Assembly: GCA_051819745.1 (NCBI GenBank)
Contig: JBNJGO010000002.1
Coordinates: 8,781 to 58,674, forward strand
Origin: Nanobdellota archaeon
GTDB lineage: Archaea > Nanobdellota > Nanobdellia > Woesearchaeales > SKGA01
Direction of reading: 5' to 3'
DNA: 49,894 nucleotides
In this document: piece by piece, positions 1 to 28,576 of the stretch
How the letters are laid out: the number at the start of each line of letters is the position of its first letter
Position numbering within the stretch: position 1 is the stretch's first letter
Position numbers and translations under genes: made by a program
Notes under the pieces: generated by a model
Databases searched by the model: none
Told to the model about the DNA's origin: nothing
What the model saw: only the letters and a program-made list of their open reading frames with translations

Positions 1-24
1 CCGAACCAAAAAAAGCGAATGCAA

Positions 25-9012: not shown

Positions 9013-9369
9013 ATGACACAATTAATCATGTTTTTAAGTACCGGCAAAGGAACATGGGCTCAAATTTCTCGGCTTATAGACCAATCATCCTTCGACGAGT
9101 ATATTATCATAACTAATGAATTTGGTTATGAAAAGTTTTCACATAAAAAACCAATAAATAAAGTCGTTGTTAATACAAAAAAAGACACGTTGCAACTCAA
9201 AGAAGAAATCGTTAACAAACTCAAACCTCTTGTGAAGGGAAGTCAAGTCGGTTGTAATTTTGTCAGCGGTTCAGGACATGAACATATGGCATTTCTCTCC
9301 GCACTTTTAACACTTGGTGTGGGAATTCGACTAGTCATGCCAGGTCAAAATGATTTTATTGAAGTGTAG
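9013..9369 (+). CDS. Hypothetical protein (small Rossmann-like?)
   Basis: 118 aa; GGAG SD; FLSTGKGTW and NFVSGSGHEHMAFLSALL weakly recall CARF/DUF1887-like strand-loop motifs. Too weak to call. Confidence 0.4.
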   Translation: MTQLIMFLSTGKGTWAQISRLIDQSSFDEYIIITNEFGYEKFSHKKPINKVVVNTKKDTLQLKEEIVNKLKPLVKGSQVGCNFVSGSGHEHMAFLSALLTLGVGIRLVMPGQNDFIEV

Positions 9370-9446
9370 TTCTTAAAATATAATCCTTTTGATAAATCAC
9401 AAAAACAAAAAACATAAAAAACAGTACTTTCAAAAATAAAATTTAA

Positions 9447-11564
9447 ATGAAATTTTCAAAGAACAATATGTTTAGTTCCTTAGGAAATTCCTTGTCATAT
9501 ATGTCTTGGAAAGATTTCACATTTCCCGCCATCGCAATAGGAGCAGGATTAGCAGGAGCTTTTGGAGTGAGTTATTTGCTAAACGATCACTCTTATTTTG
9601 AAGCATACGCCAACACATATGCTAAAACATATCCTTTTTTATTACTTGTTAATTATTATATTAAATATCCAAAAAAACGACATCAAAATAAATTTCTAAA
9701 AGAAAATTTTAACAAAACATATTCTGTACCCTCAATTAAACCAACCCCTAAAACAGTCGCTATAGGAACCGGAATCAGTGCAAGTGTTTTCATGGGAATA
9801 AATCAATTGTTATATCCAGAATTAAATCAAGACATGTACTCTTTAGGTAATAATATTGAAACAATAGTGGAAGCAATAACACATAACCAATTCAATCAAC
9901 AACAATTATCACCTGAAGTAAGAACGAGCTTAAAAAATTCATTTATGGGAGTTAATATACTTGGTCTATATTCTTATGGAATAGTTAATTTGACAAAAAA
10001 AATAATTAATGTGGGAGAAAAAGAAACAAAAAAATCAAAAAATATGTTAAAAACCGCTATTGACGAAGCAGGATTAATTTTCGGGAAGAATATTTCTTCA
10101 TATAAGACGGTTGAAAAAGGAGTAAAAATAAATAATTATTTAGGAGTCTATTCAAAAAAAGAAAAAAATCTTATACGAGCAAGTACATTATTACTAGAAC
10201 ACTTAAAAGAAACCAATAATCAAAAATTAAGCGATTATAGAATGAGTAGTAAAACAGAATTAAGTTATTTTATGAATAATCATCCTATTAAAGAAAAACA
10301 GCTCGAGTTATTTGTAAGAGCATTACATTATAAAAGTAGAAATATATCTGTCGAGGATAATCGAATCGCAAGTGATCTCATCGAGACGTATGGTAAAAAA
10401 ATAATTGATAATTCCGCCAATAATAACCTTAAGGACCTGTCAATATTATCTATTTGTGCAATGTATTATGAGAATGAAGGAAAGATAAAAGAATCTGAAG
10501 AATTGTGGAGTAAAATAGTTGATGCTATTGGTATGGATACTACTGTAAGCACTGTTGATTTTGCTCCTGGAACGATAGGAGTGCAAACATATGCTGTGAA
10601 AGATGAAGAGGATAATCCTTTTTCTAAAGTTTTTGTTGAAAAAAGTACACCTAAAAAAAATCTTAAATCATTAACTGAAGAATTTTATTTATCAAGAATC
10701 CTTTTTGAAGAGCTCATGGAAGATAAATCTGCAATCGAACATTCGCAACCGATTAAAATTAAAACAACCGATTCAAAAGCAACAATTTATTTTCGTCAAG
10801 AATGGTTCGACCATCCTATTATTTATTTGAATAATCCTGACATTTCAGATGAACATAAAAAAAAGACATTTCAAGAAGTGGTTTTTTCAATAACACAGCA
10901 ACAAGATATTCTTGAAAAACAACAAAAAGTATCTCTTCAACATATTGATTACAAGGAAAAAATAATTCGTGCGTATGAAAATATTTTTGGTAACATCTCT
11001 CTAAAAGATAAAAACATACTTTCAGATATGGTGTCCTTAGTTTATGATTTTGGTGGGCCTATAAAACCTGTTCTTGATTATCATCACAATAATTATGGAA
11101 TATATTCACTTCAAAAACAAGAGGAAAATAATATTATTGGTTGTAAAACAGACACTCAACAAAAAGGAAAGGCACCTGCAATTCTCGAATATGTCAATCT
11201 GATTGAACATAGTAGGAATGAATTGTCAAAAAATATGTTCCTATCTTTAAAAAATATTACTTTCGAATCATTTTCTAAGACATATCAAACCAATCTTCAA
11301 GAAACAGAAATTGCAAGAATGTCAGGTATTTATTCTAGAATGTTTTCGTTTTTGAATGCGTGGCTTTCATCATCTCGAAGCGAAGAACATAATCGTATTC
11401 TTCCCGTAACATATAATATGATTTCTTCATACAACGAAGGTTTTAAACAAGGATCACTGACAAAAGGTCAACCATATGAAAATAGTTTACGTCAAGGAAG
11501 AAAACAGTTATACTCAATAATTGAACCACTAGAATCAAAAATAAAGAAAATTACAAACAGTTAA
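9447..11564 (+). CDS. Hypothetical 705-aa membrane-anchored protein
   Basis: Long uninterrupted Asn/Lys-rich ORF; hydrophobic segments near the N-terminus (FPAIAIGAGLAGAFGVSYLL, VAIGTGISASVFMGINQLL); no family recognised. Confidence 0.6.
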   Translation: MKFSKNNMFSSLGNSLSYMSWKDFTFPAIAIGAGLAGAFGVSYLLNDHSYFEAYANTYAKTYPFLLLVNYYIKYPKKRHQNKFLKENFNKTYSVPSIKPTPKTVAIGTGISASVFMGINQLLYPELNQDMYSLGNNIETIVEAITHNQFNQQQLSPEVRTSLKNSFMGVNILGLYSYGIVNLTKKIINVGEKETKKSKNMLKTAIDEAGLIFGKNISSYKTVEKGVKINNYLGVYSKKEKNLIRASTLLLEHLKETNNQKLSDYRMSSKTELSYFMNNHPIKEKQLELFVRALHYKSRNISVEDNRIASDLIETYGKKIIDNSANNNLKDLSILSICAMYYENEGKIKESEELWSKIVDAIGMDTTVSTVDFAPGTIGVQTYAVKDEEDNPFSKVFVEKSTPKKNLKSLTEEFYLSRILFEELMEDKSAIEHSQPIKIKTTDSKATIYFRQEWFDHPIIYLNNPDISDEHKKKTFQEVVFSITQQQDILEKQQKVSLQHIDYKEKIIRAYENIFGNISLKDKNILSDMVSLVYDFGGPIKPVLDYHHNNYGIYSLQKQEENNIIGCKTDTQQKGKAPAILEYVNLIEHSRNELSKNMFLSLKNITFESFSKTYQTNLQETEIARMSGIYSRMFSFLNAWLSSSRSEEHNRILPVTYNMISSYNEGFKQGSLTKGQPYENSLRQGRKQLYSIIEPLESKIKKITNS

Positions 11565-18746: not shown

Positions 18747-19727
18747 TCAAGAATTATCGAGTTTTAGCATAAGGTGTGCAAGTAATGCTTCTAATTGTAT
18801 GAATTCGTCACTTCCTTCATTAAGTCGATGTTCTGCTTCACCACAGGCGTTGACAAAAGATAATTGTACTGATGAAGGTATGTCGGGAACATTCCATATT
18901 TCTTTTTGTAGTTGTACAATAATGTCTAATCCACTAAGCCCATACTCTAACATGATATCGAGAAGTGATTTTCTTGCTTCCTTGAAGTCTTGTTGTTTAC
19001 AGGATTCAAAGACTTTTGTTATTTCTTGGGGTCTGGCAAGAGATGCGATGCTGAGAATAGTTTCTTCAGTTACTTCAGAGCCAATGCTTGCTGAACTTTG
19101 AAGAATATTTTCTACTCGTCTCAAATCACCGTTACTTGCCTTGTAAATTGTTTTTTTGGTTTTTTTATCAATAGTAAGCCCTTCTTTTTCAACTATTGAA
19201 TCAATAACATCATATATTTCGCTTTCTGGAAGTGGTTTGAATTTGAATACCGCACATCTGGATTGTATTGGATCAATTATTTTCGACGAGTAATTACAAG
19301 ATAGTATGAAACGACAAGTTGAAGTATAGTTTTCCATTGTTCGTCGCAGTGCTTGTTGTGCTTCTTTTGTTAGCGAGTCACATTCATCAAGATATATTAT
19401 TTTGAAAGGAACATCTCCAAGCGCTTTTGTTCTAGCAAAATCTTTGACTTTAACGCGAACAACATCTATTCCCCTCTCATCGCTAGCGTTGAGTTCTAGA
19501 AAGTTTTCTTTCCATGATTCTTTGAATAATTGTTTTGCCACAACCAAGGATAATGTTGTTTTTCCAACACCTGCAGGTCCTGAAAATAAGACGTGAGGCA
19601 TGTTTTTTTTCTCAACAAATGCTTTTAGTTTAGAAACGATGTGTTGTTGTCCTTTAACGCCTTCGAAAGTATCAGGACGGTATTTTTCAGTCCATATTGT
19701 TGATTCAATCATAGCAATAGATAACAA
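18747..19727 (-). CDS. rfcS: Replication factor C small subunit
   Basis: WTEKYRP, GPAGVGKTT Walker A, YLDECDSLT, SRC motif; the start may be the internal Met at 19709. Confidence 0.93.
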   Translation of the reverse strand: MLSIAMIESTIWTEKYRPDTFEGVKGQQHIVSKLKAFVEKKNMPHVLFSGPAGVGKTTLSLVVAKQLFKESWKENFLELNASDERGIDVVRVKVKDFARTKALGDVPFKIIYLDECDSLTKEAQQALRRTMENYTSTCRFILSCNYSSKIIDPIQSRCAVFKFKPLPESEIYDVIDSIVEKEGLTIDKKTKKTIYKASNGDLRRVENILQSSASIGSEVTEETILSIASLARPQEITKVFESCKQQDFKEARKSLLDIMLEYGLSGLDIIVQLQKEIWNVPDIPSSVQLSFVNACGEAEHRLNEGSDEFIQLEALLAHLMLKLDNS

Positions 19728-19953
19728 GCAAGACTATTTTATAATACTTTGGGTAGGTCAACCTTAAATAGTGTACTGAATTAATTTAAAAAAATAAATA
19801 AAATAAGAATAGTTAAAAAAAAATATTTTGACTAGAAAATTCGCATATCAAATAAAAAAGTGAATCTAAAGGCCGTACAGGCCAGAAGAAAATCATATAA
19901 TAAGAATTTCTTCCAAGAGAATTCAAGTAAAAGATCGAAAAGAAAAAAAAATA

Positions 19954-20217
19954 TTAGATAATATCTTCTTCTGAAACGACCATGAAGTCTCCCATCGCAA
20001 TAACTGCACTGAATGGAATTAGCGGTTCTCCTTCTTTAGTCTTTTCAAGTTCTAGTTTTTTTGTATACACAGTTGGTTCGCTTAGCACTATATGAATTAG
20101 CTCTCCAGAAGATGTTTCAAAAATGATATCTCCTACTTCACCGAAACGTTTTCCGGTTTTCGAAACCACTGTTTTGCTAATGAGTTGTTTGGAAAATTTT
20201 TTTTCTTCGTCAGCCAT
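19954..20217 (-). CDS. PRC-barrel domain protein
   Basis: 87 aa; VVSKTGKRFGEVGDIIFETSSGELIHIVL is typical of PRC-barrel proteins. Confidence 0.65.
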   Translation of the reverse strand: MADEEKKFSKQLISKTVVSKTGKRFGEVGDIIFETSSGELIHIVLSEPTVYTKKLELEKTKEGEPLIPFSAVIAMGDFMVVSEEDII

Positions 20218-20370
20218 GTTTTCAAAACCCCTTGATAATTGTTATGTATAAAAATCAGGTTAAAACAAGATATTACTCGTTGTTTACCACTCGTATGGGT
20301 GTATCAATAGTTGAGTATTTAAATGTTTCGTATTCATTAAATATACTATAAAAAAAATAAAAGTAAAAAA

Positions 20371-21411
20371 CTAGTCGGAATCTCCGATGTTTTTAATGGT
20401 CACAGTCTTTCTTAAATTTTTACTATACCGATATTCTAGGTCGATGGAAAGTGCTTCATCATAAATAACTGTTCCACCCGCGTTTGATTCGAGAATACAA
20501 TTCACAGTTGTTTTTGCACTGCCAGATTCATCTCCAGAACCTTGAGCTCCAAGTAAAGTAATGTCACCTGTAGTTGTAGAACTATCTGCCCCTTCCCAGG
20601 AGTCACCGCAATTTATTGTTGCAGGAGTACCATCAGGCAAGCTTGCCGTTAAATGGACTTTTCCTTTTTTATTACGGTTGCTCAGGGAGGAATCACATTC
20701 TGCCTCTCCAAATTCATAAACTGCGCCTTGACCAACGTGAACAACATCAAACATAACACTCACTTTATTTTCGCCAGCTGTGTTTTGACGCAAGTTCTCG
20801 ACATGAAGCGGTCCACCTGAATTATATGTTGTTTTTGGCTTTGAAATATCGCATATTTCTTTGCTTTGTTGATCAAAAAGTGCTGATGAAGAATCATCAG
20901 AAAGACAGACTTTTGTTGTTGATTTAGTTCGATAATCATAGCACAGGTTTACCAAAAATGATTTCTCGTCATTACCTTGAAGATCAGAAGGATATGAGAG
21001 ACCATTCCATGAGAGAATTGTTGAAGTTCCGGGACTTACCGAACCATCAGGATATTTATATGCTGCTTTCAAATTATCCTCTAATTCACGAGTAAGATTC
21101 GCATCTTCATCGAGACCGAATTGTTGGGGAACTATTCCCTCAAGAGAGACCTCTAAATAATTATAGTCACCATCCATTGTAAGACTTTGCTCTCCTTCAT
21201 TAGTCAAGCGGAGTTGTATTGAAAAAGGCATTTGGCCATTATCAAGTATATTTTCGGGCGGAGCTCCTTGAACGAATTCCATTGAAACTCCCTGAGATCC
21301 CCCAACAAATGGTTTTGTCGATCCAGTGTTTGAATCCTGAGAACCACCACAAGCAGTTAGTGAGATTGAGACAATAATAAGTAAACCAAGTAATGCTATT
21401 TTTTTAATCAT
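20371..21411 (-). CDS. Secreted lipobox-type protein, Cys-scaffold family member (P5)
   Basis: 346 aa; signal peptide ending SLTAC; AGGAGGT SD; shares ordered motifs with P3 and P4: GSQGVSMEF..APP, CYDYRT..VCLSD, SGGPLHV, MFDVVHVGQGAVY, KVHL..INC, VNC, LEYRYSKNLRKTVTIK. Confidence 0.8.
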   Translation of the reverse strand: MIKKIALLGLLIIVSISLTACGGSQDSNTGSTKPFVGGSQGVSMEFVQGAPPENILDNGQMPFSIQLRLTNEGEQSLTMDGDYNYLEVSLEGIVPQQFGLDEDANLTRELEDNLKAAYKYPDGSVSPGTSTILSWNGLSYPSDLQGNDEKSFLVNLCYDYRTKSTTKVCLSDDSSSALFDQQSKEICDISKPKTTYNSGGPLHVENLRQNTAGENKVSVMFDVVHVGQGAVYEFGEAECDSSLSNRNKKGKVHLTASLPDGTPATINCGDSWEGADSSTTTGDITLLGAQGSGDESGSAKTTVNCILESNAGGTVIYDEALSIDLEYRYSKNLRKTVTIKNIGDSD

Positions 21412-21432
21412 TTTTTTACCTCCTTACATGAA

Positions 21433-22758
21433 TCAGACTCGTTTAACAGTTGTTTGTCGAGTCATCGTTTGTGAATAACCATACCCTAATTCTACGACTA
21501 GAGGGGTTTCATATGCGGATTTTGCAGTAACATATTCAAGATCATAACGACACCTGACACGACCTCCTTGTCCAGGTATAAGTTTAACACCATCAAAACG
21601 GTCTGGTGTGCAAGATAATGATTGATCGCCAATTCGTACATCAATAACATACACTTTATCTTTATATCGTGTTGAAAGGTCTGCAGGATAGTAAGGACTA
21701 CATCGTTCTATTTGTCCCATATCAAAGACCGTACCTGCGCCAATATTATCTATGTGAATATCAAAGAATACGCTTTGACGAGTATTTTCTTGTTCTATTC
21801 TTGTAATCGCTACTGGAGCACCGTTCCCGCCGTTGAAAGTCACTTCTCGCGGACGGCAGACTTTTCTTCCTTCACTCATTGGTGCAGGATCAATACATAC
21901 CATTGGTGAAGCATAAGTGGAGTATAAATAACAGTTTGTGACCATGAATCGCATAGTTCTTTTGTCCACTCCTTTTGTCCATTCTTGGAGTTCTCCATTG
22001 AAGACAAGGGTTTCCATCTCACCTCCAGGATAATCTGGATCGTCTGGTCGTAAGTAGAATTCTTTTCCGTTATAGCGATCGAATGATATTCCTGAAAGCA
22101 TCATTAAAAGACCACGACCGTGATTGAATAAGTTGAAATCAAGATCATCATCAACGGAAAATCCGAAGTTAGCTTGGTCTCCCATTTGGTTGTAATCAAA
22201 ACCTATATTATCTAGGACTTCAGCTTCAATACCGAGAAGCTCTGCTAGGGGACCTAAGCTATCAGCACTCATCCCAAATCGACCATCTCCTTCAAAGTAA
22301 GCATCAGTGCCAACACCTTCGCAACTAACTACTGAAGACACCGTGTCAAGGAAACTGTCACTGTCTATACCACCCATATTAAAATCGATAGTACAATCAC
22401 CCCACCCTTGATCAAGTTTGGGGATATTGATATCTTCAATGTGAATAAGGTAAGGATCATAACCAGAAATATAAACGCCTCCTCGAGTGTAAGATCCTCC
22501 AATGTTGTGTAGATCAACCGCCACTGCAAAGTCATGATCTCCCGGTTGCGCTCCTCGAGAATAATAATACATTTTTGAAGGTGGATCGGATGGATTCGCG
22601 AACGTCATCCTAACTCCTTCTGAACCTCGATAATACTCTTTATTAGGATCATCATTGCTATTTGAGCCAAATTTTCCACCCATCGAACAGCCCGTAAGAG
22701 CTATTAAGAGAGTGAAAACCATCATAACTGATACGATTCGAACTGTTTTCATTGACAT
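21433..22758 (-). CDS. Secreted lipobox-type protein, Cys-scaffold family member (P4)
   Basis: 441 aa; signal peptide ending ALTGC; AAGGTG SD; GSEGVRMTF..DPP, CYLYST..VCIDP, NGGNGAPVAI, FFDIHIDNIGAGTVF, KVYV..LSC, VRC, LGYGYSQTMTRQTTVK. Confidence 0.8.
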   Translation of the reverse strand: MSMKTVRIVSVMMVFTLLIALTGCSMGGKFGSNSNDDPNKEYYRGSEGVRMTFANPSDPPSKMYYYSRGAQPGDHDFAVAVDLHNIGGSYTRGGVYISGYDPYLIHIEDINIPKLDQGWGDCTIDFNMGGIDSDSFLDTVSSVVSCEGVGTDAYFEGDGRFGMSADSLGPLAELLGIEAEVLDNIGFDYNQMGDQANFGFSVDDDLDFNLFNHGRGLLMMLSGISFDRYNGKEFYLRPDDPDYPGGEMETLVFNGELQEWTKGVDKRTMRFMVTNCYLYSTYASPMVCIDPAPMSEGRKVCRPREVTFNGGNGAPVAITRIEQENTRQSVFFDIHIDNIGAGTVFDMGQIERCSPYYPADLSTRYKDKVYVIDVRIGDQSLSCTPDRFDGVKLIPGQGGRVRCRYDLEYVTAKSAYETPLVVELGYGYSQTMTRQTTVKRV

Positions 22759-22837
22759 CTATTACACCTTCACACATAAGTTACTGATAACTTCTTATTT
22801 AAATAATTTTGTTATTTTCAGCGGTAAAAAGAGAGTA

Positions 22838-24502
22838 TCAGGATATTTTCTTGCTAAACACCCTTTTTTCTCCTAATTTGTCTTCTACCATGATACAGAC
22901 AGTGGTGTCATCGGCAGGCATTTGATCGAGAGATAATTCAAAATACATACCGAATGTTTCCGAATATTCTCCTTTTAAACTTGTGAATTGATTGTGAGCA
23001 ATATTTTCACACCAACTAGCAGGATCTGTAGCTTTAGGTTCGGTGAATGCATAATATGCTTTGTTTGAACAGCCACAAGTTCTGTCAATATCTTTTTCAT
23101 CATCCCTATCTTTACATATCCATGAGATACTATCGCTTGTTTGTTGTATTGAAGTCGCCATTGGCTTAGCATTTGAAGTTACACAGTCAGGCCAGCCACA
23201 GTAGGTTCCTGGAAAGCAGAGGTTATCTGCTGGAATACAGTTACCTCCTGCTTCGCGACATTTTTCGATCCCGTTATACATGCACGACATCCCATCATAA
23301 ACAGGTTTTTGTTCATCTTGAGATTTCGTATTTATGTGTGCTAGTGGAGAGTATTGGATTCTCCAGTCAAAGGATGTGTTCTTTAGCTCGTCAGATATTG
23401 ATTTGAAAACATCGTAATCATATTCACTCGCGTGATAATCGCATTTTGACAGACAACCACCCTCAACTTTTTCTTCCCAAGGGAGGCAGTTATCATTAGA
23501 AATATCTTCGTCGGAAAAAATAGGGTCGCTAGATCGTTTCACAGTGACTTCTTTTGATTCCATGCCTGAGTAGAGATATGAAAGATCGACGTAGAGCTCA
23601 GTATAGTAACTTGATGTTAGGGCGAGAATGTCTGTATTATTTAGTTGACATTGTATCTTTGCAGATCCTTCATCAAGACGAATAGCTTCCGGCAGGCAAT
23701 TAAGAGTTTTTTCTCCAAGACGAGCGTTCACCCTAACCTTGTTGATTGAATTTGATGTTATCTCGCCACAGCTTTGTTTTCCAGCGTTTGATTCAGTGTT
23801 GAAATCGGAGACAAACCCATCACCATATTGTTCTATGTGAATGGTGAATTGTGGCCTGATGTAATCATCAACAGGTATCATTTGTGATTCTACATCTGTT
23901 ATTCCTACAGGTGCCCCTTGACCTCCTGAGTACGAATGGTCTTGCGCTTCACATGCTTGTTCTCTTGCATCTGTTCCTTCAGGATTTGTGTCAACACACA
24001 CTGATTCTGAAAATATTGTTTTGTAAGGATAACAATAGCTTAAAAAGAATTGAGCAGTGTCTGATTCGAAATTTCCAACAATATCTCTAGCTTCAAATTC
24101 AGCTATCGCAAGAGACGTTTCTTCTCCTGTAGGGTATGATTGTGATTTCCCAAATAATGAAATATCATCGATAGAATCATATCGGGAGTTTTGATTATGG
24201 TCTTGAATTTTTTTGACAGGTCCTGAATTGAATTTCAGGTTCGCATCCATCGTGTAATTAGTCAAATCGAATGCACCTTTATTATATGCTTTTGCTTGGA
24301 CATCAAAAGTTGATGATTCAAATACTGCTTCAGGCGGGGCGTGATCGAGAAATGAAACGGCGACTCCTTGTGTTCCAGTATGAAAGTCAGTTGTTTGTGA
24401 ATTCGTCTGGGAAAATCGCCCACCCATTTGACAACCAGTAAGCAGTACCAATATTGAGAAAATAATGATAATAAAAGTCAGGGAAGTTCGTTGTAGTTTC
24501 AA
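22838..24502 (-). CDS. Secreted lipobox-type protein, Cys-scaffold family member with Cys-rich C-terminal extension (P3)
   Basis: 554 aa; TTG start behind GAGGTGA, overlapping the P2 stop as TTGA; signal peptide ending LLTGC; GTQGVAVSF..APP, CYPYKT..VCVDT, SGGQGAPVGI, FTIHIEQYGDGFV, KVRV..LNC, IQC, LSYLYSGMESKEVTVK; then about 230 aa with many Cys. Confidence 0.8.
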   Translation of the reverse strand: MKLQRTSLTFIIIIFSILVLLTGCQMGGRFSQTNSQTTDFHTGTQGVAVSFLDHAPPEAVFESSTFDVQAKAYNKGAFDLTNYTMDANLKFNSGPVKKIQDHNQNSRYDSIDDISLFGKSQSYPTGEETSLAIAEFEARDIVGNFESDTAQFFLSYCYPYKTIFSESVCVDTNPEGTDAREQACEAQDHSYSGGQGAPVGITDVESQMIPVDDYIRPQFTIHIEQYGDGFVSDFNTESNAGKQSCGEITSNSINKVRVNARLGEKTLNCLPEAIRLDEGSAKIQCQLNNTDILALTSSYYTELYVDLSYLYSGMESKEVTVKRSSDPIFSDEDISNDNCLPWEEKVEGGCLSKCDYHASEYDYDVFKSISDELKNTSFDWRIQYSPLAHINTKSQDEQKPVYDGMSCMYNGIEKCREAGGNCIPADNLCFPGTYCGWPDCVTSNAKPMATSIQQTSDSISWICKDRDDEKDIDRTCGCSNKAYYAFTEPKATDPASWCENIAHNQFTSLKGEYSETFGMYFELSLDQMPADDTTVCIMVEDKLGEKRVFSKKIS

Positions 24503-26808
24503 GCTTTCACCTCTACAGTAGTTGAATGATCAAGCGAGTATCTGTAATCCATTGAAAAGAACATTTGATCTGAAAACCACCCGTCATCTTCAAATCGTTC
24601 GTTCAAAATAGCATTATCAAATTTTAAATCACAACTAATTGACCTGAATTGATCCCATGATTGGAATTCTTTTTCGAATTCGAAAACCCATCGATCATCT
24701 TCTGATTTATAAGGTATTTTTTGTGTTGTCAGGAAGTTACATTCTTCAAGGGCTACTCCTCTTGGCATGTTGATATTGATATTATTGATGTCTGTTATTT
24801 TATTCCCTTCTGCTGAGGAGAGGTCTTCAAACTGGAAGACGAAATTAATTCTTCGGTTCCTTATCGAAGATGGTCCTCCTTCCACGACAATTGGCATTTG
24901 TAGAACGTAGCGATTATCCTCTCGTGTATTACCGACATTTATTTTCACTGGACCTGATGTTGATACACTTTTCGAATCGCCTTCTATATATTCGCCTGGT
25001 TTATATTGATCACCTGCACGGTTTGCGAGCGTCAAGAATTTTTCTTCTTGTGATTTTGACAATATTTTTAGAGGTACTTTCACTGATGATCGGTAATTGA
25101 ATACTTGTTTAACATCAACAACATGACTTCCTTTTTGTAATCCATCAAATGAACATCTTACTCGTGATGATTTTGATCCCGTCAACTCAGTATAAGGAGG
25201 ATCAACCGTCTTTGCAGGTGTTGAACCAACCATACACGATGTCATCAGTTCGAGAGGGTGGTACGAATTTGCTATCGTGTCAATCTCTATATCTACTCGT
25301 TCTCCTGTAAAAAAATAGTCTCGAGTCGGCTCTACAGATTCTATTTTCGCCCCTATGAATTCAGCTGTTCTTTCAGTTTCACTCCCTTGAACTACAGAAC
25401 CATTGCCATAGCCGTATTGTCGCTTTATACTGTTGAGAAAATTTTGAATGGGATTTGCATTTTTCAATCCTGCCTCAACATCTGCTTGTGAAGATCCCAC
25501 ATCAGAATTTAACTGTCCTGATTGTATATAACCGACCATTTGCGGACCTGCAAACATGAGAACAATGACAAGTCCGAAAAATAATCCTATGGGAACTAGT
25601 TTATCTGGATTGTACGCCCAAACAAGATCAAGTATTATGCCTACGATAATAATAAAATAGAGGAGGAAAGAAGCAGATCCCATAAATCCTTGCACTGCTG
25701 ATGAATTTGAAAGCAATAGTCCAGCCAAAAAGTTCAGGACAAGAAATCCGACAATAGGATATATTTTTTTCTCATCGATAATATTGAACTTGTGAAATGT
25801 GAAAAGTAGTAATGCATAAACGATAATGACCATAATGTTGATCATTTTAAATTCGACCGATATCAAACCAGTTCCTAACGGCCCTAGCATGAAAGTTACA
25901 GCTAACAGTAAAAAAAATACGATGTCATTCCAACTTGAAAATGTATTATCTCGAAATTTTTTGCCTGCAGCTACAGCTGTTTTGAGTTTCGAGATCGAAT
26001 TTTGATATCCTTCTTTAACACCTGCAACTTTCTTATCAAATCGTGATTTTACTTTTGCTTTGATTTCTTCAATCTTGTTTTCATAAGACTCGCGAATAAC
26101 GTGAAGTGGGGAGAATTTCTTTATCAGTCCAGCAACGACAAACTCATAACCTGCATCGATAAAATCTCCTACTAAGGGAATAAAAGATGTGACCGTGTCA
26201 ATTAAGTAGAAAATGAATATCTTGAAGAAAGCTCCAACGTCTCGAAGTAAAATGATTGTCGGTATGGCAAAATAAACAACAAGCCCTATATTAATAAAGA
26301 TTTCAACAGTATCTATTGCGGTGCTCATCGCAGTTCCTATGACTGGAATGAACTCTAACACTCCGGAGAGATTAAGAATAGCGTCCACGATTGCTGCAAT
26401 CCAAAACACGAGATGAGATATTCCTCCCGTGAAAAAATTTAGTATTGCTTCATTTGTTTTAATCTGCCGATCTTGATTTTTTCGTAGTTTGCTTATTTTA
26501 TTTTTTACTTTTTGATATAATGATTGTTCTTCTTTTTCTAAATATGAATTATCAGATTGTTGTTGTTCACTGTCATTAGTAGTCCCTTGCGGTTTAGAAG
26601 AATCATTTTGAGCGGGCTCTGCAGAATCCTGGGTGGTATTAATAGTTGTAAAATTATTAACTTGTTGAGGTTCATCATTTCCTGAAATAGACGAGGTATC
26701 AGAGGACGTGTTTTCATCAAATTCTTTAGAAAATTTTTCAGAAACTTTCTCAGATAGTTTAGAGTATGCTTCATCTTTCATATCAAATGACTCGCCCTTC
26801 AAAATCAT
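24499..26808 (-). CDS. Polytopic membrane protein fused to a degenerate Cys-scaffold family domain (P2)
   Basis: 769 aa; GAGGTG SD; acidic/polar low-complexity N-terminus (about 120 aa), about 8-9 hydrophobic segments by eye (aa ~130-440, with repeated FIPVIG/FIPLVGDFID motif), C-terminal ~330 aa with STSGPVKINV, INFVFQFED, SISCDL, MDYRYSLDHSTTVEVKA. Confidence 0.8.
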   Translation of the reverse strand: MILKGESFDMKDEAYSKLSEKVSEKFSKEFDENTSSDTSSISGNDEPQQVNNFTTINTTQDSAEPAQNDSSKPQGTTNDSEQQQSDNSYLEKEEQSLYQKVKNKISKLRKNQDRQIKTNEAILNFFTGGISHLVFWIAAIVDAILNLSGVLEFIPVIGTAMSTAIDTVEIFINIGLVVYFAIPTIILLRDVGAFFKIFIFYLIDTVTSFIPLVGDFIDAGYEFVVAGLIKKFSPLHVIRESYENKIEEIKAKVKSRFDKKVAGVKEGYQNSISKLKTAVAAGKKFRDNTFSSWNDIVFFLLLAVTFMLGPLGTGLISVEFKMINIMVIIVYALLLFTFHKFNIIDEKKIYPIVGFLVLNFLAGLLLSNSSAVQGFMGSASFLLYFIIIVGIILDLVWAYNPDKLVPIGLFFGLVIVLMFAGPQMVGYIQSGQLNSDVGSSQADVEAGLKNANPIQNFLNSIKRQYGYGNGSVVQGSETERTAEFIGAKIESVEPTRDYFFTGERVDIEIDTIANSYHPLELMTSCMVGSTPAKTVDPPYTELTGSKSSRVRCSFDGLQKGSHVVDVKQVFNYRSSVKVPLKILSKSQEEKFLTLANRAGDQYKPGEYIEGDSKSVSTSGPVKINVGNTREDNRYVLQMPIVVEGGPSSIRNRRINFVFQFEDLSSAEGNKITDINNININMPRGVALEECNFLTTQKIPYKSEDDRWVFEFEKEFQSWDQFRSISCDLKFDNAILNERFEDDGWFSDQMFFSMDYRYSLDHSTTVEVKA

Positions 26809-26841
26809 TACACCTCTTTACTAAACTGATCTTTGCTGTAA

Positions 26842-28527
26842 TCATTGTATTCTGATATCAATTTGTGATATAGTCACATCCCGTTGTGGTTTAATAACAA
26901 TAGAATTTGTCCCATAATGAACGAGATTATCTATTGACCGTGTTATTCCCTGATTGTATGTTGATACAGGAAGTGTTTGTCCGTTTATGACAAAGTCCAC
27001 ATCCTTATAAGAAGTGTCAACAAAATCAACCCGTAATAGCACATCTACACCTGCTTTCAATCGGGGTTCATCGAGATATGAAAGAGAATCTTCTTGAGGC
27101 AGACAATTTGGTCTATTCGAGTTATCATCATAATATCCTTCAGGACACGCATCACATTCTGATATGGTAACATAAGATGTGCAAACAGAATCAAAACCAG
27201 TGAATGGAGTGTCATCACACCAATAATTATTTCCTGATGATTGAAAACAACAATCCTTATCATAACGGACATCACAATTTGCCGGACACAAGCCATCAGT
27301 ATCATCACCACACGTTCCTTCCACATCATCATGCGGATCACCCATCCTATCTTCATATCCACTTGGGCATCGAGAAGTATATTGTGCAAGAAGCATGTTA
27401 ACACATCGATCATTAGGATTATCTGTTTTCATATCACACCAATAATTATTGCTTGATTCTTCAAAGCAACAATCCTTATCCTCGTATGCCATGCAATTAT
27501 CAGGACATTCGCCGTCAACTTCCCCACAATGAGGTTCATTATCTTGTACGAATTTAAAGAGATCTTCATCTAATTCAAAATAATAAATTGGATGTTCAAC
27601 ATCTGATAGTGATACTTCAACACTTGCTTGATCAATAATATAGTCACCATATGATGCTTCAAACGAAATGGTGTTTTGACCTTGCTTGAGATGTGTTGTG
27701 TGTAAGTTAATGAAATTTTTAATGTGACAATCTGGAATTCCGTTAAAGACTGTTTTGTTGTTAAGAACTATTTCAAGCGAACCGACTCTGTTTGGATCAC
27801 AGTCAGGATAGAAAGATAATTCTGCTTCCTTAAAGTATTCGAGTTCTTCTTCTGAAATAGGGAACCATTGATGATTTTTGCTTTGTGTTGAATCAACTAT
27901 ATCTCCAGTTATTTGAATTCCTTCAAGTTTGAAAAGATTTGATTTCCAAAATTCAACACCCGGTTCTGTTGTAGAAAAATAAAGTATGTTTTCGTGTTTA
28001 AGAAGATGTTTTGGTAATTCAATTGGCTGTGATGATCCTTGAGTTGTCTCATCAGAATAAATTTGAACTCCATTAAAATATAATTCTAGCGTTCCATCTC
28101 CAAATAGGACATTATAAGAAACAAGAAGTTCTCGAACGTTTTCAGGAGTCACTGTAAAATTTATTGAGTGTGTTGTTTCTTGAAAAGCAGAGTTTTTTAT
28201 TCGTACACGAGGAGTTTCGGCTAGTATTGTGGATTCTGCAGTAGTGTGTAACCGGAAACTATTAAGTTCGTGTGTAATATCATCATCTTCAATAGCAGAT
28301 ATTTGGCCGATATTACTGTTAAGGGTTGATGTTCCTATTTGATCAGAATATCCTTGTGAAGAAGAAGGGGGGTTTCCAGGAATAGTATCGTGTTCTAAAA
28401 GTTGTTGTTGATCTTGATCTGGTAAGAATGCAACGTATAATACGAGAAGTCCTGCAATAATAAGAACGAGAAGAGCTGCACCTGCACCACTTGCTCCTTT
28501 TTTTAATGATAAAACATGCCCTGACAT
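26842..28527 (-). CDS. Prepilin-like (class III signal peptide-like) modular surface protein with tandem Cys-rich repeats (P1)
   Basis: 561 aa; GGAGGA SD; N-terminus MSGHVLSLKKG/ASGAGAALLVLIIAGLLVLYVAF; three ...NG... beta-module-like repeats; two Cys-rich repeats containing CP.NC....DKDCCF..S.NNYWCD. Confidence 0.8.
   Translation of the reverse strand: MSGHVLSLKKGASGAGAALLVLIIAGLLVLYVAFLPDQDQQQLLEHDTIPGNPPSSSQGYSDQIGTSTLNSNIGQISAIEDDDITHELNSFRLHTTAESTILAETPRVRIKNSAFQETTHSINFTVTPENVRELLVSYNVLFGDGTLELYFNGVQIYSDETTQGSSQPIELPKHLLKHENILYFSTTEPGVEFWKSNLFKLEGIQITGDIVDSTQSKNHQWFPISEEELEYFKEAELSFYPDCDPNRVGSLEIVLNNKTVFNGIPDCHIKNFINLHTTHLKQGQNTISFEASYGDYIIDQASVEVSLSDVEHPIYYFELDEDLFKFVQDNEPHCGEVDGECPDNCMAYEDKDCCFEESSNNYWCDMKTDNPNDRCVNMLLAQYTSRCPSGYEDRMGDPHDDVEGTCGDDTDGLCPANCDVRYDKDCCFQSSGNNYWCDDTPFTGFDSVCTSYVTISECDACPEGYYDDNSNRPNCLPQEDSLSYLDEPRLKAGVDVLLRVDFVDTSYKDVDFVINGQTLPVSTYNQGITRSIDNLVHYGTNSIVIKPQRDVTISQIDIRIQ
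27103..27528 (-). repeat. In-frame tandem duplication encoding two Cys-rich modules of P1 (aa ~334-475)
   Basis: HCGEVDGECPDNCMAYEDKDCCFEESSNNYWCDMK... versus TCGDDTDGLCPANCDVRYDKDCCFQSSGNNYWCDDT...; each is followed by further C..CP.GY residues. Confidence 0.75.
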
Positions 28528-28568
28528 GATAATTCCTCCACAAACACTATTGAATCAAATACTAAGAG

Positions 28569-28576
28569 TATTTAAA
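28569..28576 (-). promoter_or_regulatory. TATA-box-like element upstream of P1
   Basis: Minus strand reads TTTAAATA about 40 nt upstream of the P1 ATG, in the 95-nt gap after top6A. Confidence 0.35.

Follow-up and report, generated by a model that had tools for sequence, protein, structure and literature searches.

Organisation of the locus

We analysed a stretch of 49,894 nucleotides (nt) from an uncultured, tiny-celled Nanobdellota archaeon (assembly GCA_051819745.1, contig JBNJGO010000002.1, positions 8,781 to 58,674), called the window in the following. The contig has 58.7 kb and belongs to a metagenome-assembled genome. Five consecutive genes, P1 to P5, lie between its positions 20371 and 28527. 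Their best explanation is a vertically inherited operon, found only in Woesearchaeota-type archaea, that encodes a membrane-anchored, disulfide-stabilised surface complex. An earlier note, made from the sequence alone, had described five minus-strand open reading frames (ORFs) here, and they were found at exactly the coordinates that it gave. P1 (26842..28527) encodes 561 amino acids (aa) with a prepilin-like signal and three related β-rich domains. The 769 aa of P2 (24499..26808) start with a cytoplasmic N-terminus of low complexity, continue with a polytopic membrane region (aa ~122-422) and end in a ~345-aa ectodomain. P3 (22838..24502) starts with TTG and encodes 554 aa. P4 (21433..22758) is a lipoprotein of 441 aa (ALTGC), in which the module shared with P3 and P5 is combined with a P4-specific insertion (aa ~110-230), and P5 (20371..21411), a lipoprotein of 346 aa (SLTAC), is the minimal form of this module. 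The five genes carry the locus tags ACQESC_00545 to ACQESC_00565 and each is annotated as 'hypothetical protein'. A further ORF of 118 aa within P1 (27057-27413) is a shadow ORF.

The gaps between the successive genes are 33, -4, 79 and 21 nt, as the earlier note had counted them, and the overlap between P2 and P3 is the TTGA that it described. Its claim of a Shine-Dalgarno sequence for every gene also held, with GGAGG, GAGGTG, GAGGTGA, GAAGGTG and AGGAGGT in front of P1 to P5, respectively; the GGAGG of P1 was read from the sequence at 28535-28539. A promoter-like box had been placed about 40 nt before P1, and the TATA-box-like TTTAAATA is indeed there, at 28569..28576 on the minus strand, 41 nt upstream of the P1 ATG, as a candidate promoter of the operon. 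A second, identical TTTAAATA box (22796..22803, minus strand) is located in the 79 nt between P3 and P4. With 37 nt to the P4 ATG it is spaced nearly like the P1 box, and it may be an internal promoter for separate expression of P4 and P5. Directly after the P5 stop follows an oligo-T tract (TTTTTTACTTTTATTTTTTTT; 20350..20370, minus strand, read from the sequence), a likely archaeal transcription terminator, and a terminator-like hairpin with a T-run overlaps the end of P5.

Conservation of the operon

For the comparison across genomes we used 74 species-level loci from GTDB, 57 metagenome loci found with the P4 alignment and three loci obtained by exact look-up. All 134 loci are from Woesearchaeota/Nanoarchaeia. 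After classification of the genes with hidden Markov models (HMMs), the order P1<P2<P3<P4<P5 was monotonic in 134 of 134 loci, among relatives whose P4 proteins are as little as about 25% identical. The full set of five genes is present in 69 loci; the others are truncated where their contig ends or come from a sub-lineage that lacks P5. The conserved co-occurrence that the earlier note had named as a check on its reading is thus clearly there. Furthermore, a search of 5.8 billion clusters with P4 returned 94 homologues, all from sources named Woesearchaeota, Nanoarchaeota or Nanobdellota and none with a Pfam domain. The junction between P2 and P3 is overlapping in 78 of 96 loci, with exactly 4 nt in 43 of them. 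As this overlap is conserved across the loci, P2 and P3 are presumably translationally coupled.

The shared module of P3, P4 and P5

P3 begins with the lipobox LLTGC and the shared disulfide-rich β-sandwich module (aa 1-325; 23528..24502, minus strand). The lipobox ends LTGC, LTGC and LTAC proposed for P3, P4 and P5 were confirmed, and all seven ordered motifs that were claimed to link the three proteins appear in their alignment. P3, P4 and P5 are true paralogues. Their similarity is far beyond chance, both by BLASTP (P3-P4 5e-22, P3-P5 6e-13, P4-P5 1e-9) and by comparison of the family profiles with hhalign (1.7e-29 and 5.9e-27), which bears out the paralogy proposed before.

Among orthologues with a complete N-terminus, the lipobox is found in 78 of 89 P3, 99 of 106 P4 and 101 of 108 P5 proteins (88-94%). 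Lipid anchoring of P3 to P5 is plausible, since the AliA lipoprotein machinery (arCOG02177) has been reported in DPANN archaea (PMC12462473). Six Cys residues are invariant in P4 and seven in P3, counting the lipobox Cys, which would allow about three disulfides. The most conserved motif of the family is GGVYISGYDP in P4.

The AlphaFold2 (AF2) model of P4, built from an alignment of 50 sequences, is all-β, with a predicted local distance difference test score (pLDDT) of 83.3 and a predicted template modelling score (pTM) of 0.73. It contains strands of 18 and 25 residues at aa 266-283 and 416-440, and the insertion at aa ~110-230 is less confident. We read the model as two β-sandwich lobes, one formed by aa ~49-107 and 232-289 and the other by aa 316-440, and regard the fold as a generic tandem β-sandwich. 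The Foldseek matches of P4 in the PDB (integrin α legs, CfaB pilin fusions, a cohesin dyad, RbmA and WxLIP) were long, poor alignments with template modelling (TM) scores of 0.09-0.16, and we do not regard them as homology.

The module genes vary in copy number between loci. A tandem second P5 lies downstream of P5 in ~27 loci (among them L035, L036, L039, L042, L045, L048, L051, L053, L060, L074, L075, L087, L091, L094 and L095) and a second P4 is found in a few. In some clades the family of the module is still growing. At L062, L064 and L123 the operon stops at P4, and P5 was not detected in the downstream flank that was fetched. Metagenome-assembled genomes of the P5-less sub-lineage also hold a solitary P4-like gene on another contig (L043, L047, L109 and L112). 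At L002, P3 and P4 are separated by a 230-aa lipoprotein (9227-9919, plus strand), whose signal peptide is almost that of the adjacent P4 (…NISPRTVLLLVILSVTVFIITGCSG). It looks like a recent duplication of the signal peptide fused to an unrelated β-rich domain.

P2 as a membrane protein with a probable divergent module copy

By HMM iteration on the fetched loci 63 P2 orthologues were recovered; a word-index search gave only 2 proteins. According to hydropathy, the ectodomain is 322-389 aa long in 53 of the 56 orthologues analysed; most lineages have 4-5 transmembrane segments, the clade of the window 8-9. The transmembrane region is poorly conserved. It is preceded by a low-complexity, charged or Q/S/E-rich cytoplasmic tail (aa 1-121, window 26445-26808), which ranges from ~20 to 420 aa across orthologues.

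In Pfam, P2 gave only weak matches to DUF4112 and DUF2207_C. Its PDB matches (TBP polyQ, huntingtin and fusions of G protein-coupled receptors) were rejected as compositional artefacts of the low-complexity tail and the transmembrane helices. We also considered P2 as a transporter or an enzyme and discarded this, as the transmembrane region has only partly conserved H..D and P.W.LY motifs, which are not retained in the clade of the window.

The ectodomain (aa 423-769; 24502..25542, minus strand) is probably a fourth, highly divergent copy of the module of P3, P4 and P5, as judged by sequence profiles. BLASTP between the two is not significant and the hhalign E-values are weak (0.002-0.02), but the P2 ectodomain is collinear with residues 56-323 of P3, motif by motif over the whole module. 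The paired motifs are FxFxTW.Y.TYTFVD with CYPYxT....VCID, GPV.IG with GAPVAIT, and FG.TL.N.W..G.I with F.I.I.N.G.G.V; two Cys residues and the terminal Y.Y......V.V strand are paired as well. The three comparisons of P2 with the module scored 30.4, 27.2 and 24.7, versus 14.8±2.3, 13.1±2.1 and 16.0±3.2 with column-shuffled profiles and 13.5-17.3 with reversed profiles. The score is thus well over the controls against P3 and P5, and marginal against P4, where the shuffled maximum was 24.1. Moreover, when P2 and P3 orthologues were aligned together with MAFFT, P, C, C and Y columns remained invariant. The earlier note had suggested a degenerate copy in P2, which we regard as likely, if short of proven.

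P1 carries a prepilin-type signal and related β-rich domains

The prepilin-like nature of P1 was well recognised in the earlier note. The protein has a canonical archaeal class III signal, with a basic N-terminus and a [KR]G-Q motif that is followed by an Ala/Gly-rich hydrophobic helix; in the window it reads KKG followed by ASGAGAALLVLIIAGLLVLYVAFLP. Most of the 56 aligned orthologues keep the signal, with the consensus [KR][KR]GQ..(A/G)AA(I/V)L(V/I)..I...LYILFLPP.

Three related β-rich domains, D1 (~aa 75-205), D2 (~aa 206-325) and D3 (~aa 478-561), follow the signal. They are related to each other by hhalign (D1 with D2 1.4e-10, D2 with D3 3.1e-6). Sub-threshold Pfam matches to jelly rolls of the galactose-binding-like/CBM type occur in some of the 56 orthologues, namely CBM_35 (2.3e-5) in two, CBM-like domains in four and BetaGal_ABD2 in three. 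Between D2 and D3 lies a clade-specific Cys-rich insert (aa 333-477; 27097..27531, minus strand, sequence read directly), in which a unit of ~75 aa is duplicated in tandem: CG(E/D)xDGxCPxNC...DKDCCF...NNYWCD. The insert is missing from P1 orthologues of ~400 aa. Two giant Cys-rich secreted proteins of 714 and 1256 aa adjoin the cluster at L002 (14296-20462, minus strand), and their CGD…C…DC-type repeats look like this insert.

The P3 C-terminus is a variable cargo site

Beyond the module, P3 of the window has a C-terminal extension (aa 326-554; 22841..23527, minus strand) with a Cys-rich knot, in which 14 Cys are invariant, and then an Ig-like β-sandwich of ~110 aa. Its AF2 model has a mean pLDDT of 65, with 80-90 in the last ~110 aa, and Foldseek gave merely Ig-, PKD- and FlaF-type matches with E >= 7e-3. 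We considered a cryptic hydrolase here and rejected it, as model and fold search yield an Ig-like domain and a low-confidence Cys-rich part and no enzyme fold. Extensions of this type are essentially confined to P3 orthologues, with 22 representatives among 1.84 billion proteins.

Over 98 distinct P3 orthologues the extension varies in length from 0 to 768 aa. It is absent in 13, a Cys-rich knot of 84-129 aa in 24, 131-260 aa long in 48 and longer than 260 aa in 13. The extension of the window, with 229 aa and 14 Cys, falls in the 131-260 aa class.

Pfam domains were sought in the aligned orthologues of P1, P2 and P3; for P4 we relied on the source-database annotation of the 94 homologues, and P5 orthologues were left out. 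Murein hydrolase domains were found in ten orthologues, each above the Pfam gathering cut-off. At the C-terminus of P3 these are SLT (L057, L052 and L104), DUF2272 (L057, L026 and L102), 3D (L037 and L070), Peptidase_M23 (L062) and an N-acetylmuramidase (PF11860, 1.7e-30; L108). In L001 an NlpC/P60 domain (6.9e-14) is inserted in the ectodomain of P2. Every enzymatic Pfam domain detected in the P1 to P3 orthologues, or listed for P4, is itself a murein hydrolase or is found together with one. The catalytic motifs are intact, including 'ES' and 'YNG' in SLT, 'HIH' in M23 and 'DCSG' and 'GHV' in NlpC/P60. L062 and L001 are independent of the main clade of hydrolase cases. Within that clade the cargo is swapped between close relatives: L102 carries DUF2272 and L108 the muramidase, with P4 proteins that are 78% identical. 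The P3 C-terminus is thus the variable cargo site of the family. Since the operon of the window has no detectable enzyme, wall lysis cannot be the universal core function.

Searches for known families

P1 to P5 of the window gave nothing above threshold in Pfam and NCBIfam, where the matches were signal-peptide or low-complexity noise, and only signal-peptide or low-complexity matches in PHROGs and PADLOC. Likewise, a sequence-profile search of the PDB with the P1, P2, P3 and P4 families and with the combined P3/P4/P5 module found no relatives. No S-layer family was matched in Pfam, NCBIfam or by PDB sequence, and Foldseek offered integrin legs, pilin dimers and a cohesin dyad with TM scores of ~0.13. 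For the P4 model, Foldseek against BFVD returned nothing with E < 1e-3 (best 2.5e-3, TM score <= 0.15). Capsid and class II fusion (fusexin-like) folds gave no significant match to this model, flavivirus E being found at E 0.016-0.25. A viral origin was rejected, as there are no relatives in IMG/VR contigs. The statement in the earlier note that the module could not be matched to a named family thus withstood both profile searches (Pfam, NCBIfam, PHROGs, PADLOC, PDB) and Foldseek searches (PDB, BFVD).

We conclude that the operon defines at least four new protein families, which are P1, the membrane part of P2, the shared module and the Cys-rich extension of P3. Their newness is based on the Pfam and PDB sequence searches, and the fold comparison covered the P4 module and the P3 extension. 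The literature that we searched holds no description of the operon or of its families.

Genomic neighbourhood

The genes that recur beside the operon across loci are RFC-S, PRC-barrel, Pelota, FmrO and TrmB. They are housekeeping genes, mostly in reverse orientation to the operon. Downstream of the operon in the window come the RFC small subunit and the PRC-barrel gene, and upstream of it TopoVI A and B. The genes for the RFC small subunit and the PRC-barrel protein (window 18747-20217) adjoin the operon in 29-40 of the first 77 loci, usually in the opposite orientation. Their position on the strand of the operon in the window suggests a local inversion in its clade. In the same clade TopoVI takes the upstream place of Pelota/FmrO.

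Across the first 77 loci the conserved neighbours include no assembly ATPase, no PilC/FlaJ-like protein and no peptidase. The 57 metagenome loci, in which the scan was for P1 to P5 only, did not reveal an ATPase or platform gene either. In the Pfam census of the window no pilus ATPase or platform gene is found beside the operon, and P2 matches no PilC/FlaJ family. These results agree with the earlier observation that no secretion or assembly ATPase and no PilC-like gene is adjacent. Two other neighbours were considered as parts of the system and rejected. The NMT1/ABC/permease transporter (~16.4-18.7 kb) is not conserved beside the operon. The PRC-barrel gene is often adjacent to it, but is usually encoded in the opposite direction and lies past the terminator-like tract.

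Elsewhere the window carries housekeeping genes such as SRP54, EF-2, an aminoacyl-tRNA synthetase and RNase HII, and others. Outside 20371-28527 there are also TopoVI A/B together with a gyrase B-type protein, a PF08014 (MATCAP/DUF1704) protein (6.7e-40), a GDSL lipase, a translin-family protein and, as a trio, the transporter genes mentioned above.

Comparison with known systems

The class III surface proteins, which include pilins, archaellins and the 'bindosome' of Sulfolobus, resemble P1 in the basic N-terminus, the [KR]G motif followed by Q or A and the hydrophobic helix. The binding proteins of the bindosome have a large globular ectodomain, as P1 does. These systems differ in that here only one of the five operon proteins bears the signal, the P1 ectodomain matches no pilin or binding-protein family, and no assembly ATPase, platform or peptidase is among the conserved neighbours of the operon.

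Sus-like complexes of Bacteroidota combine the β-sandwich lipoproteins SusE and SusF with the enzyme SusG. Like the operon, they comprise several tandem β-sandwich lipoproteins, one of which can bear a polymer-cleaving enzyme, and surface polymer capture would be the common theme. However, the operon has no SusC/SusD-type pair, its organism has no outer membrane, the enzyme is present in ~10% of species, and the proteins resemble those of the Sus system neither in sequence nor in a specific fold.

Wall-cutting domains borne by a structural apparatus are also known from VirB1/EtgA-type lytic transglycosylases, amidase effectors of the type VI secretion system and tail-associated lysins. The domains on P3 and P2 (SLT, M23, NlpC/P60, muramidase and 3D) are swapped like warheads between close relatives. 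Unlike in secretion systems and phage tails, the carrier is an archaeal lipoprotein module without homology to either, and no energy source or conduit is evident.

WxL/Csc-type operons of Firmicutes (WxL and WxLIP/DUF916) are likewise multi-gene, with Ig-like-domain products that are thought to co-assemble on the surface, and WxLIP structures are among the weak Foldseek matches of P4 (E about 1e-2, TM score 0.14-0.24). They differ from the operon in anchoring and in domain composition and have no sequence relationship with it.

From the same lineages as the operon, large extracellular SLT proteins of Woesearchaeota and Pacearchaeota have been described as fam00969 (Castelle et al. 2021, PMC8204110; Vigneron et al. 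2022, PMC9723730). They share with the operon the type of enzymatic domain and the proposed meaning, interaction with the bacterial wall. They differ in being single giants of up to about 3000 aa, whereas the hydrolase of the operon is a small C-terminal cargo on one of five subunits. No known multi-component system could claim the operon as a member by its defining components, and we would place it outside the known kinds of system.

Proposed function and alternative explanations

We tentatively propose, with a probability of about 0.48, that the operon encodes a lineage-specific apparatus for contact with the wall of bacterial partner or prey cells. The attachment or envelope structure suggested in the earlier note is supported by our results and is sharpened to contact with bacterial walls by the murein hydrolases fused to P3 and P2.

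P2 would be the integral-membrane base and contribute, as its ectodomain, the fourth and divergent module copy. P3, P4 and P5 would be lipid-anchored multi-β-sandwich paralogues that probably form a hetero-oligomer with the P2 ectodomain, and P1 would be inserted via its prepilin-type signal and present three jelly-roll-like domains, probably for glycan binding. The C-terminus of P3 probably faces outward, which we conclude solely from the fusions there, and different cargo has been placed on it in evolution. In the organism of the window, the Cys-knot and Ig-like cargo of P3 would act as an adhesin; one clade and a minimum of two further lineages have as cargo an enzyme that cuts bacterial peptidoglycan. 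The complex would then adhere to the bacterial wall and, where it has hydrolases, breach it locally. We infer the physical assembly, its orientation, the glycan binding and the bacterial target from this arrangement. The core role is more likely contact or adhesion than lysis, because ~10% of species carry hydrolases and some P3 proteins are without cargo.

The literature on the lineage points the same way. SLT proteins and peptidoglycan hydrolases are unusual features of Woesearchaeota, Pacearchaeota and Nanoarchaeota and have been taken as signs of bacterial hosts (PMC8204110, PMC9723730, PMC12352652). For Woesearchaeota and Pacearchaeota with SLT proteins an interaction with bacteria has been suggested (PMC8204110, PMC9723730), and an abundance of peptidoglycan hydrolases is reported for Nanoarchaeota (PMC12352652).

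Several points weigh against contact with bacterial walls as the function. A recognisable hydrolase is present in only ~10 of the 98 P3 orthologues, mostly of one clade by P4 similarity, and the 13 orthologues without any extension have no cargo at all. In P1 to P5 of the window itself no enzyme is detectable by Pfam and NCBIfam or, for the P3 extension, by AF2 and Foldseek. The poorly conserved transmembrane region of P2 suits an anchor and yields no mechanism. The carbohydrate-binding assignment of P1 is weak, as it depends on sub-threshold Pfam matches. Finally, methanogenic archaea have also been proposed as hosts of Woesearchaeota.

A purely structural coat is the serious rival to wall contact, if an unlikely one. 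P1 and the four modules would form an envelope scaffold, S-layer-like or below an S-layer, and the hydrolases would merely be displayed on an abundant surface protein. Such a coat would account for an operon that is kept in all sampled relatives as part of the core genome and that lacks an enzyme in most orthologues, and multi-β-sandwich, disulfide-rich, lipid-anchored folds are found in many archaeal envelope proteins. Nevertheless, S-layers normally consist of one or two very abundant proteins rather than five orthologous groups with a translationally coupled membrane protein, and no S-layer family was matched. The hypervariable, swappable cargo of P3 and the pilin-type, lectin-like P1 also suit the recognition of a target better than a lattice.

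Two lesser roles can be set beside it. For a metabolically poor cell, the operon might serve the foraging of glycans or muropeptides in a Sus-like manner, with P1, P4 and P5 binding the polymer, the cargo of P3 cutting it and P2 aiding the uptake of fragments. Several β-sandwich lipoproteins in one operon, one of them with a glycan or peptide hydrolase in some species, would suit this role, as would the weak matches of P1 to the galactose-binding-like/CBM clan, and peptidoglycan-scavenging enzymes have been reported in related DPANN archaea (PMC11537232). We consider it quite unlikely, given that the membrane region of P2 is short (4-5 transmembrane segments in most lineages), poorly conserved and without a match to a transporter family, that no transporter is among the conserved neighbours, and that most orthologues, including those of the window, have no enzyme. 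The family-wide class III signal of P1 would also be expected of a large minor pilin or tip adhesin, in which case the operon would encode an accessory or tip complex of a type IV pilus-like filament, whose machine is encoded elsewhere and for which P2 to P5 provide docking or chaperoning. Foldseek matches to the pilin-type β-sandwiches CfaB and CsuA/B and to an archaeal type IV pilus agree with this, but their TM scores are just ~0.12-0.27, and class III signals occur on non-filament surface proteins as well, such as the Sulfolobus binding proteins. As no ATPase, platform protein or prepilin peptidase was seen within ±8-10 kb in the 134 loci, of which the 57 metagenome loci were scanned only for P1 to P5, a role at a pilus tip seems very unlikely to us.

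All five proteins are 'hypothetical' and match no family, so they could in principle be a chance run of fast-evolving secreted proteins that arose by local duplication and form no functional system. The synteny already effectively refutes this, with five separate orthologous groups in the same order in relatives down to ~25% P4 identity; the conserved P2-P3 overlap and the invariant Cys positions speak against it too.

Contact with bacterial walls can also be put in a bolder form, which we regard as doubtful. The P2 ectodomain, P3, P4, P5 and the lectin-like pilin P1 would be a fixed scaffold, and P3 would carry an exchangeable 'warhead'. With this machine Woesearchaeota would recognise the peptidoglycan walls of specific bacterial hosts or prey and, in some clades, open them. 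If this were true, the operon would represent a hitherto undescribed archaeal machine for cell-cell contact across domains, and the type of cargo would predict the wall chemistry of the host.

Implications for Woesearchaeota

Woesearchaeota are among the most widespread uncultured archaea. All products of the operon are predicted to be exported, and one subunit repeatedly gains enzymes that cut bacterial walls. With P3, P4 and P5, the operon adds a likely case to the abundant lipobox lipoproteins of DPANN archaea. As it is present in every related genome region examined, it offers a testable handle on how Woesearchaeota attach, and to whom.

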